Made by a program: the position numbers and the translations under genes
Source: Octopus vulgaris
Lineage: Eukaryota
Direction of reading: 5' to 3'
Assembly: GCA_951406725.2 (NCBI GenBank)
Contig: OX597827.1
Coordinates: 41,850,001-41,914,000 of the forward strand
DNA length: 64,000 bases
Part shown: positions 33,675 to 51,503 of the stretch, one piece after another
Numbering within the stretch: position 1 is the stretch's first letter
Layout of the letters: each line of letters begins with the position of its first letter
Notes under the pieces: model-generated
Databases searched by the model: none
What the model was told of the DNA's origin: nothing
The model's input: only the letters and a program-made list of their open reading frames with translations

Positions 33675-33870
33675 ATGTAACCACATGTGAATCGCTGGCG
33701 ATTTTTTTCCACCGTCACCTTTTTCTGTCTCCTGTTTCTGAGGAAGAGCTTTGCTCGGAACGTAAAAACCACCTTTCTTTCCTTCTCTGAGCGTCTGCTA
33801 ATACTTTACATGTACCATGTCCTAGCATTGTTGTTTTTTGTGTTTGTTCTTGTTTTTTTTTGGGGGGGGG
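33675..33870 (+). mobile_element. Putative Penelope-like terminal fragment with HHR-like motif at 33734-33770
   Basis: GTTT-CTGAGGA-A-GAGC-TTT-GCTC-GGAA-C-GTA-AAA; related to the 7689 and 44549 motifs, all followed by (CT/CC)GAGCG. Confidence 0.55.
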
Positions 33871-34046
33871 GGATTTACTATTATATACATATATATAACT
33901 TACTTGGAAAAGGATGCGTGGCGTTCGATCATATAATAATATAAATAATATATAAATATATGCATATTTAGATACATACGAACAAAGACCACATTTACAA
34001 TCACACACACGCTCACACATGAATATATTAATAAATGAAATCAAAC

Positions 34047-34392
34047 AATGATAAATCTCAGAGCGAGTTATAAACAGTAGCGGCAAAAGTATATGTATTT
34101 GTGAGGGGAACTGACTTCTCGTCGACAACTATGATTGTCACACACCGATGATAGGTCAATATCTTGAAACTCGAGTTCGTGTGTATCATGAGTTGAAGAC
34201 GGGAAGGATGACTTCCCTTCACAAATACTGATAGGACACAGAAAGTGTGTCTATAGCCAGCTGGAGGAGGTGTCTTCCTGGGGCTACAAACTACAGTAGC
34301 ATCCACCCTTAGGGGTTAGCCATATTCATATGGCAAATATACGTCACAATGTGTTGCCGCTACTGTTTATAACTCGCTCTGAGATTTATCAT

Positions 34393-34393
<1 letters not shown>
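34047..34393 (+). mobile_element. 347-bp foldback element with 40-bp perfect terminal inverted repeats and internal HHR-like motif
   Basis: 34047-34086 is the exact reverse complement of 34354-34393; nested stems 34095-34228; CCGATGA..GAAA-CTCGAG-TT at 34145-34177. Confidence 0.75.
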
Positions 34394-34436
<43 letters not shown>

Positions 34437-34650
34437 TATAGTTTTACGTAGCCGTCTCAGTACCTGACGTTCTCTCTCATGATCTTCGGATGCGAAGAAT
34501 GCCATCATCATCATCATCATCATCATCATATTATATGTATGTACATACGTTTTATGAATAATATAAGTTATGCATTTATATATGTATACGCATACACACG
34601 CGTTTCTTCGCTTTTTTCCCTAGATAGAGAGATAGATAAGTAGATAGATA

Positions 34651-51459: not shown

Positions 51460-51503
51460 AATATCTGAAGAAGGAATATTATTCCGAAATATCATATCAG
51501 ACT
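51460..51503 (+). ncRNA. Minimal hammerhead ribozyme-like motif with intact core
   Basis: CTGAAGA-A-GGAAT-ATT-ATTCC-GAAA-TATCATA-TC; helix II perfect, helix III near-palindromic, helix I weak. Confidence 0.55.

Follow-up and report, generated by a model that had tools for sequence, protein, structure and literature searches.

A decayed insertion of a non-coding 352-nt hammerhead repeat in Octopus vulgaris, likely copied by Penelope-like machinery

The 347-bp feature at 34047-34393 of the window (the 64,000-nt stretch of contig OX597827.1 analysed here) is one mutated copy of a non-coding repeat of about 352 bases whose RNA is predicted to cut itself by means of a hammerhead ribozyme. We consider it highly probable that the locus is a decayed insertion of a 352-nt type I hammerhead repeat, that is, an animal non-LTR retrozyme, likely copied by the reverse transcriptase (RT)/GIY-YIG protein of a Penelope-like element (PLE). 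The initial annotation had proposed a non-autonomous hammerhead retroelement of the retrozyme or Penelope-like world, and this reading is borne out by genomic copies, tandem arrays and a PLE footprint. It had also taken the 347 bp as the element unit and a pair of 40-bp repeats as its terminal inverted repeats (TIRs), and both of these assignments fall: the actual unit is 352-353 nt, repeated head to tail and mapped here on the natural monomer L012:1461-1812, and the repeats reflect an inverted second arm instead.

The sense arm of the insertion (34082-34393, plus strand) spans unit positions 41-352. It is 5'-truncated, without unit positions 1-40, and stops at a 3' end designated B. By mapping it is 96% identical to the natural monomer, and it differs from the majority letters of its own subfamily at 8 of 312 nt. 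Three elements follow one another along its plus strand: a rod of nested stems capped by the hammerhead (34095-34228, from folding and from pair counts in 50 copies), a 3' domain of hairpins (34235-34350) ending at 3' end A (unit position 309, window 34350), and a 43-nt PLE-type tail between 3' ends A and B (34351-34393, from the end tally). By analogy with the in vitro system of PMC11167929, as described there, the hairpin domain may be the site of RT binding and of the first start. A (TA)n tract at 34394-34440, seen in the sequence, is the target at the right end. On the left, mapping on the unit reveals an inverted second arm (34036-34086, minus strand) with unit positions 313-352 and 1-11, which extends to 34025 (unit position 23) if three differences are tolerated and overlaps the sense arm by about 5 nt. 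A Pfam search of 26 of the window's 95 long frames found no RT or nuclease, and no PLE protein match was found in the window. Two other hammerhead-like motifs lie in the window on the plus strand. One, at 33738-33770, about 300 bp upstream, is a degenerate minimal type with G at position 13 (by eye) and sits inside a different repeat that also flanks other loci; the other, at 51465 (relaxed scan), has a 5-bp helix II and almost no helix III.

The genome searched comprises 2.8 Gb in about 30 large contigs. The 347-bp query returns 2,312 candidates, and the 40 that were scored are 90-97% identical to it; most of these cover only query positions 36-347, and many have neighbours 352 bp away. Exact motifs occur 61, 426, 864, 498 and 2,259 times, with no hit for the reversed-pattern controls, and these counts are lower bounds on units, whole or partial, and not on loci. 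They correspond to at least 426 and at least 498 hammerheads in two tiers of the family, at least 864 3' ends, and at least 2,259 exact matches to a shared 25-mer lying in the 3' hairpin domain. Three age tiers can be distinguished, 73-91% alike. The old tier is 73-85% like the window's tier and its units are about 15-20 nt longer (40 scored of 3,662 candidates); the middle tier includes the window's subfamily, within which loci differ by 5.2%; and the young tier has a 353-nt unit and a between-locus difference of 2.2%.

Tandem copies, which the initial annotation had suggested looking for, are found as arrays of 2-9 head-to-tail units, and the window copy falls short of a single unit. Young-tier arrays reach 5.1 units (L241), and their tandem units differ by 1.0% versus 2.2% between loci. 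The 9-unit array (L080:2647-5797) belongs to the middle tier, and by eye its flanks read like what we take to be a broken PIF1/Helitron helicase. Beyond end B, 77 of 168 cases (duplicate loci included) continue into the unit's own first bases, 76 pass into TA-like DNA and 15 go elsewhere. Three pairs of loci (L010/L011, L068/L069 and L172/L177), 7 kb to 1 Mb apart, share arm junctions and are segmental or assembly duplicates. The unit has a GC content of 42-43% and is 63-65% paired when folded as a circle. It is non-coding and has no LTR organisation by ORF and PLE-protein checks: the longest ATG ORF on the circularised unit is 57 aa, and it has no PLE protein match.

These properties bear on the possibility that the sequence is the pLTR of an autonomous PLE and that its short copies are 5'-truncated debris. 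Every pLTR trait is indeed present (hammerhead, tail and inversions), and PLE-like protein fragments flank 10 of 210 loci. However, the unit returns into itself after 352 nt with no ORF above the 57 aa already mentioned, and no ORF for RT and GIY-YIG between pLTRs, the mark of an autonomous PLE, accompanies it. In the 7 of these 10 loci that were read, (TA)n, unrelated DNA, an inversion or a target duplication stands between the repeat and the PLE piece, and 40 regions around 3'-end matches, a small part of the family, hold this unit only. We regard the pLTR interpretation as improbable and retain that of a separate non-coding repeat.

The hammerhead is a type I ribozyme with an extended stem I (34131-34189, plus strand), recognised by motif, fold and comparison of copies. 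On this strand it consists of a 6-bp helix I (34139-34144 with 34178-34183), the core at 34145-34151 (C3 at 34145), helix II at 34152-34165 (4 bp with a 6-nt loop), the GAAA core strand at 34166-34169, and a palindromic helix III at 34169-34176, followed by a predicted cut after 34177; an unpaired U1.7 is read from the sequence at 34184. The predicted cut position is that given by the initial annotation, which was also right to place a hammerhead-like motif at the tip of the rod but called it minimal, whereas its design is that of canonical metazoan type I ribozymes. Minimal PLE hammerheads are described in PMC4209133 as having a short helix I, a long helix II, an extra base after A9 and little or no helix III; here helix I has 6 bp and an outer stem, helix II has 4 bp and helix III has 2 bp.

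Two departures from the canonical design are traits of the window's subfamily, a C at position 4 (U4C, 34146) and a U·U mismatch at the base of helix II. Three more changes are private to the window copy: 34144 G>A disrupts the helix I pair adjoining the core, 34162 C>T creates a G·U pair in helix II, and 34177 C>T turns the GUC triplet at the cut into GUU. Mismatches at the helix I and helix II junctions had been ascribed to this copy, and both are present, although only that of helix I is its own and that of helix II is common to the whole subfamily. With these extra changes the hammerhead of the window copy is probably dead, as the earlier suggestion that it may be inactive had predicted, and because the copy is also less than one unit long, it would likely form no circle and not spread. 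Rfam hammerhead models find no match in the window copy at E <= 10 and none in the older-tier loci L012, L108 and L143 at E <= 0.5. The young tier matches the whole of Hammerhead_1 (RF00163) with 32.2 bits (E = 7.9e-7), 1.8 bits under the gathering cut-off of 34 bits.

The layout of a 6-bp helix I, CYGAYGA, a 14-nt helix II, GAAA and a 2-bp helix III is constant in 161 motifs, among which helix III is palindromic in most tiers and the cut triplet is GUC or GUA. The canonical core (C3 U4 G5 A6 N7 G8 A9 / G12 A13 A14 A15 / U16 H17) occurs in the young, CUGAUGA and old tiers and is absent from the window's subfamily (U4C). The type I hammerhead of the young tier, with U4 and a G10.1-C11.1 pair, is canonical throughout; in the remaining tiers the base of helix II is A-U, U·U, C·U or C·A. 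Counted by eye in the first 100 listed of 426 matches to a pattern that excludes the young tier, position 4 is U in 82 and C in 18. U4C is a known natural variant, described in PMC3088659 as slower or of reduced activity. U1.7 is unpaired in 145 of 146 segments and an A stands at the end of loop 2 in 136 of 138, an arrangement consistent with the contact between loops 1 and 2 whose role is described in PMC11875169. Over the three tiers, subfamily-level change in the core letters is confined to positions 4, 7 and 17, a conservation that is partly due to choice because many loci were picked by exact hammerhead patterns.

The feature had been called almost fully base-paired, and its fold is far beyond that of shuffled sequences with or without the inverted arm. 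The 347 bp fold at -171.2 kcal/mol (shuffles, -87.2 +/- 5.1), and 34087-34353, which leaves out the inverted arm, folds at -103.1 (shuffles, -69.1 +/- 4.9, none of 100 below -81.9). The exact 40-bp inverted match, five nested stems and three later hairpins that had been listed are all present in the sequence. Since the apparent TIRs are the product of an inverted arm, the outer 40-bp stem would be absent from the element's own RNA. Folded as a circle, the natural monomer reaches -123.7 on the plus and -118.3 on the minus strand, each about 8 standard deviations below its own shuffles, and folding energy does not pick the strand of the element. An Rfam MIR5048 match at L108:1574-1956 (76 bits, cut-off 160) spans an inversion junction and is probably just the long hairpin.

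Covariation, another check that had been suggested, is found in a sample of 50 rods from all tiers (44 distinct), picked from 88 to spread over subfamilies. Across the 47 rod pairs, 90% of cells are paired against 37-50% in slid controls, a comparison that favours the hammerhead structure, which was set by hand from the window fold. Both sides have changed at 12 of the 47 pairs (reached in 4 of 500 shuffles), and the whole-rod covariation score is 0.133 versus 0.100 (0 of 500 shuffles); further pair types in the same set do not exceed the shuffles (398 of 500). In helix II, both-side changes affect 3 of 5 pairs, and in 28 of the 44 distinct copies the pair adjoining the core is open. RNAalifold on the 50 rods recovers the outer stem and helix II, not helix I. 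Most of the covariation comes from a few subfamily splits, to which the shuffle control is blind, and with so few events and a hand-set structure it is to be read as support and not as a significance test.

The exact 40-bp inverted match joins 34047-34086 to 34354-34393. Its first 21 bases match twice in the window, as in none of 100 shuffles. This apparent TIR is the overlap of the sense and inverted arms, a chance product of a short second arm, and is likely the scar of a PLE-type insertion. Exact inverted ends beside a TA tract could also be expected of a DNA transposon (MITE) that has 40-bp TIRs and inserts at TA. Yet a similar inverted start occurs in only 4 of the first 30 loci, with different junctions, and the family has scattered junctions, tandem copies, duplications of about 12 bp and stems that tolerate G·U changes across copies. 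A MITE with fixed TIRs and a short fixed target-site duplication is refuted by the scattered inversion junctions, and to a DNA transposon of any such kind we assign a vanishingly small probability. The earlier preference for structure at the RNA level over a MITE agrees with the G·U-tolerant stems, the scattered junctions and the tandem copies.

The link to PLEs comes from the anatomy of the insertions. The end tally covers 203 arms at 122 loci, after 18 of 140 loci were removed as overlaps or apparent duplicates. Loci were selected by likeness to the window copy or by exact motifs, 40 of them for a tail 22-mer, so proportions differ from those of the whole family, yet this selection cannot exclude B+B pairs. 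Nearly all arms (187 of 203) end at unit positions 296-311 or 348-7, around site A (309, the exact end of 63 of the 203) or site B (352, the exact end of 57 of the 203), which are 43 nt apart, and TA-like flank abuts 136 of these 187 typical 3' ends. The 5' ends are scattered, with only 2 of 203 arms starting at the cut site (134-140), and inversion junctions are likewise scattered along the unit. The 71 tail-out inverted pairs comprise 60 A+B, none A+A or B+B, and 11 with one atypical end, the window copy included; in the young tier, 18 inverted pairs comprise 13 A+B, none alike and 5 atypical. Overall, the two ends are of different types in 73 of 89 inverted insertions and of the same type in none. 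Direct repeats of at least 8 bp, mostly 12-13 bp, flank 14 of 29 non-TA sites, compared with 21 of 812 mismatched flank pairs.

These insertions have the traits of PLE-type integration, namely an inverted 5'-truncated arm, partial tandems, a tail at one end and a microsatellite target. The window copy, with ends at B and at +11 to +23, is an exception to the A+B rule and has no visible target duplication. Its left arm may once have been longer and have reached an end at site A, as the lack of a remaining TA tract on the left side suggests, in which case a later deletion would have shortened it.

Many arms (122 of 203) read through the cut site, and 59 of 203 exceed one unit, so the template is a circle or an uncut multimer and not a cut linear monomer. 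Non-majority letters are shared within a locus at 0.64-0.67% versus 0.11% between loci in the young tier, and at 1.0-1.2% versus 0.13% in the window's subfamily (L080, L114 and L138 left out). This six- to ninefold excess of shared private letters indicates that both arms derive from one template or parent locus.

A search by GIY-YIG finds many copies of an intact 781-aa frame with RT, CxxC and GIY-YIG in the genome, in a PLE family whose pLTR measures 504 bp and whose copies have a tail of about 35 nt and end in (TA)n. Of the 6,136 candidates 150 were scored, and the 50 loci drawn from these are dominated by one family. Its linker and the order of its domains suggest membership of the Neptune or Nematis clade, as described in PMC8557442. 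The young intact PLE family (L221-L237) is represented by L224:744-5990, in which a 479-aa frame, of the same length in L224, L232 and L234, overlaps and precedes the 781-aa frame; PLEs are described with one ORF, whereas this layout has two frames. By eye, its pLTR contains a minimal-hammerhead-like motif with U3-A8. A second PLE family with its own hammerhead has a 766-bp inverted arm (L238:2321-5483), and this hammerhead also has C at position 4. In the three readable inverted insertions of these resident PLEs (L226, L228, L238) one end has the tail and the other is without it, again by eye. Across the 50 loci, tblastn finds no match between the PLE families' pLTRs and the retrozyme (best E 0.59), and blastn finds only two separately inserted old copies and one weak 64% match. 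As no sequence homology was found in this set, the partner is a candidate class and not a named family. Retrozyme copies at L117, L135, L072 and L258 lie in (TA)n beside PLE copies or in a PLE 3' region, positions consistent with targets shared with PLEs.

A possible cycle would begin with transcription of a tandem copy. Two hammerheads, probably acting as a dimer since helix III is a 2-bp palindrome, would excise a monomer, and a host ligase would close the circle, by analogy with the retrozymes described in PMC7229834. A PLE protein, likely a dimer, would nick a (TA)n or AT-rich site on both strands, with some 12 bp between the nicks, and reverse transcription would start inside the RNA, at 309 for one strand and at 352 for the other, by analogy with PMC11167929 as described there. 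Both cDNAs would extend 5'-ward through the cut site, often for more than one unit, and end at scattered positions, where they would join, in many cases across a few bases common to both, into a two-armed insertion. In the window copy one short arm would mimic a TIR.

The same family and PLE machinery could instead use an uncut, linear read-through of tandem copies as template, with the hammerhead a passenger and circles by-products or absent. Long arms are accounted for equally by an uncut multimer and by a circle, the cut site shows no cluster of 5' ends (the 2 of 203 above), and subfamilies with U4C and an unpaired helix II base have spread well (the 18 with C4 in the first 100 listed of 426). 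In PMC11167929, as described, hammerhead mutants still insert in vitro and uncut RNA is the main PLE template. On the other hand, copies of a linear template would be no longer than their parent, and we infer that multimers would then run down without regaining units, whereas young arrays reach 5 units with tandem units more alike (1.0%) than loci (2.2%). Moreover, core letters other than 4, 7 and 17 are without subfamily-level change among tiers that are only 73-91% alike. We judge the linear template unlikely, if far from negligible. The circular alternative, in its specific form, has a PLE-type dimer rolling on one circular 353-nt RNA from two fixed start sites at once, one for each strand, while lineages with a crippled hammerhead (U4C and an open helix II base) spread and were later replaced by one with a fully canonical core. 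This we put forward tentatively, at somewhat short of an even chance; one end of each type is found in 73 of 73 typical inverted insertions.

Contigs of sequencing runs also contain the family. Of the runs with the family, 14 are guessed to be RNA and none is listed as such; among those guessed to be RNA, the contigs span the unit completely in 4 of 4 runs. One such run yields a single 383-nt self-closing contig about 4 letters from the young genomic monomer. The end-to-start joint is also present in two large DNA-like runs of unstated kind, and tandem DNA gives such contigs too. That the young variant is an RNA without genomic template is rejected by 498 exact genomic matches, and selective expression of the young tier was dropped, as this tier dominates DNA-like runs too. 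The family with young-tier letters also appears in runs X5, X14 and X16, labelled as three other organisms.

At the level of sequence, the family corresponds to an animal non-LTR retrozyme as known from coral, mussel and axolotl (Cervera and de la Pena 2020, PMC7229834). As described there, those elements likewise have non-coding tandem units of 170-400 nt, a type I hammerhead and a self-paired fold, GC below 45-50% (42-43% here) and target duplications above 4 bp. Axolotl HHR_Amex2 (PMC7229834, as described), whose unit is about 350 nt, also combines a 2-bp helix III with a basal U·U in helix II. The octopus family differs from the descriptions in PMC7229834 in that its insertions are mostly dispersed and contain one to a few units, with arms in inverted orientation, a pair of fixed ends and (TA)n as target. 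RNA circles and cleavage were shown for the families of PMC7229834, whereas the octopus family is known from sequence and compared by description. Searches of the literature on octopus and cephalopod retrozymes, hammerheads and non-autonomous Penelope elements found no description of this family, which supplements and repeat libraries may hold; the portion of PMC8967140 available does not mention ribozymes.

Retrozymes are presented as non-autonomous PLE derivatives by Li, Clavereau and Pollet (bioRxiv 10.64898/2026.07.22.740005). The PLE dependence proposed in that preprint is the same as here, and PLEs and retrozymes reside together in a genome in both cases. As summarised there, 35 species (31 vertebrates, 3 insects and 1 coral) supply its evidence, in the form of co-occurrence and pLTR homology; here, unlike in that work, the link comes from insertion anatomy and no pLTR homology was found. 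PLEs such as Neptune and Naiad are described in PMC8557442 as forming partial tandems and an inverted truncated arm, often with the tail at one end, and as biased to microsatellites. Purified Poseidon protein nicks both strands and extends them, starting within the RNA at two neighbouring sites between which the tail lies (PMC11167929, as described). The family shares with EN+ PLEs, as they appear in PMC8557442, PMC11167929 and PMC4209133, the partial tandems, the inverted arm and the microsatellite or AT-rich targets, as well as two internal start sites downstream of the hammerhead (PMC11167929). Unlike them, it has no ORF, a tail of 43 nt versus 30-40, and a canonical instead of a minimal hammerhead. 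Poseidon in vitro, as described in PMC11167929, has no strand difference in start site, whereas here the ends differ in all 73 typical pairs. The family thus works like a PLE insertion, yet it is neither an autonomous PLE nor a MITE.

Elements of this kind are known already, and the locus itself matters little since the window copy is probably dead. It does illustrate that PLE-type inversions can pass for MITE-like TIRs. The PLE dependence of animal retrozymes, argued before from co-occurrence and pLTR likeness, is readable here from hundreds of insertion ends. How PLE proteins start, why insertions are two-armed and whether the circle is the template could be tested on this small substrate, a non-coding template of 353 nt whose natural variants include hammerheads predicted to be highly active and others predicted to be weakly active. 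If rolling from two starts and the replacement of lineages are true, then nature would have left in this family a dated record of the way in which PLEs build tails, inversions and tandems, and of whether fast self-cleavage is needed for spread.
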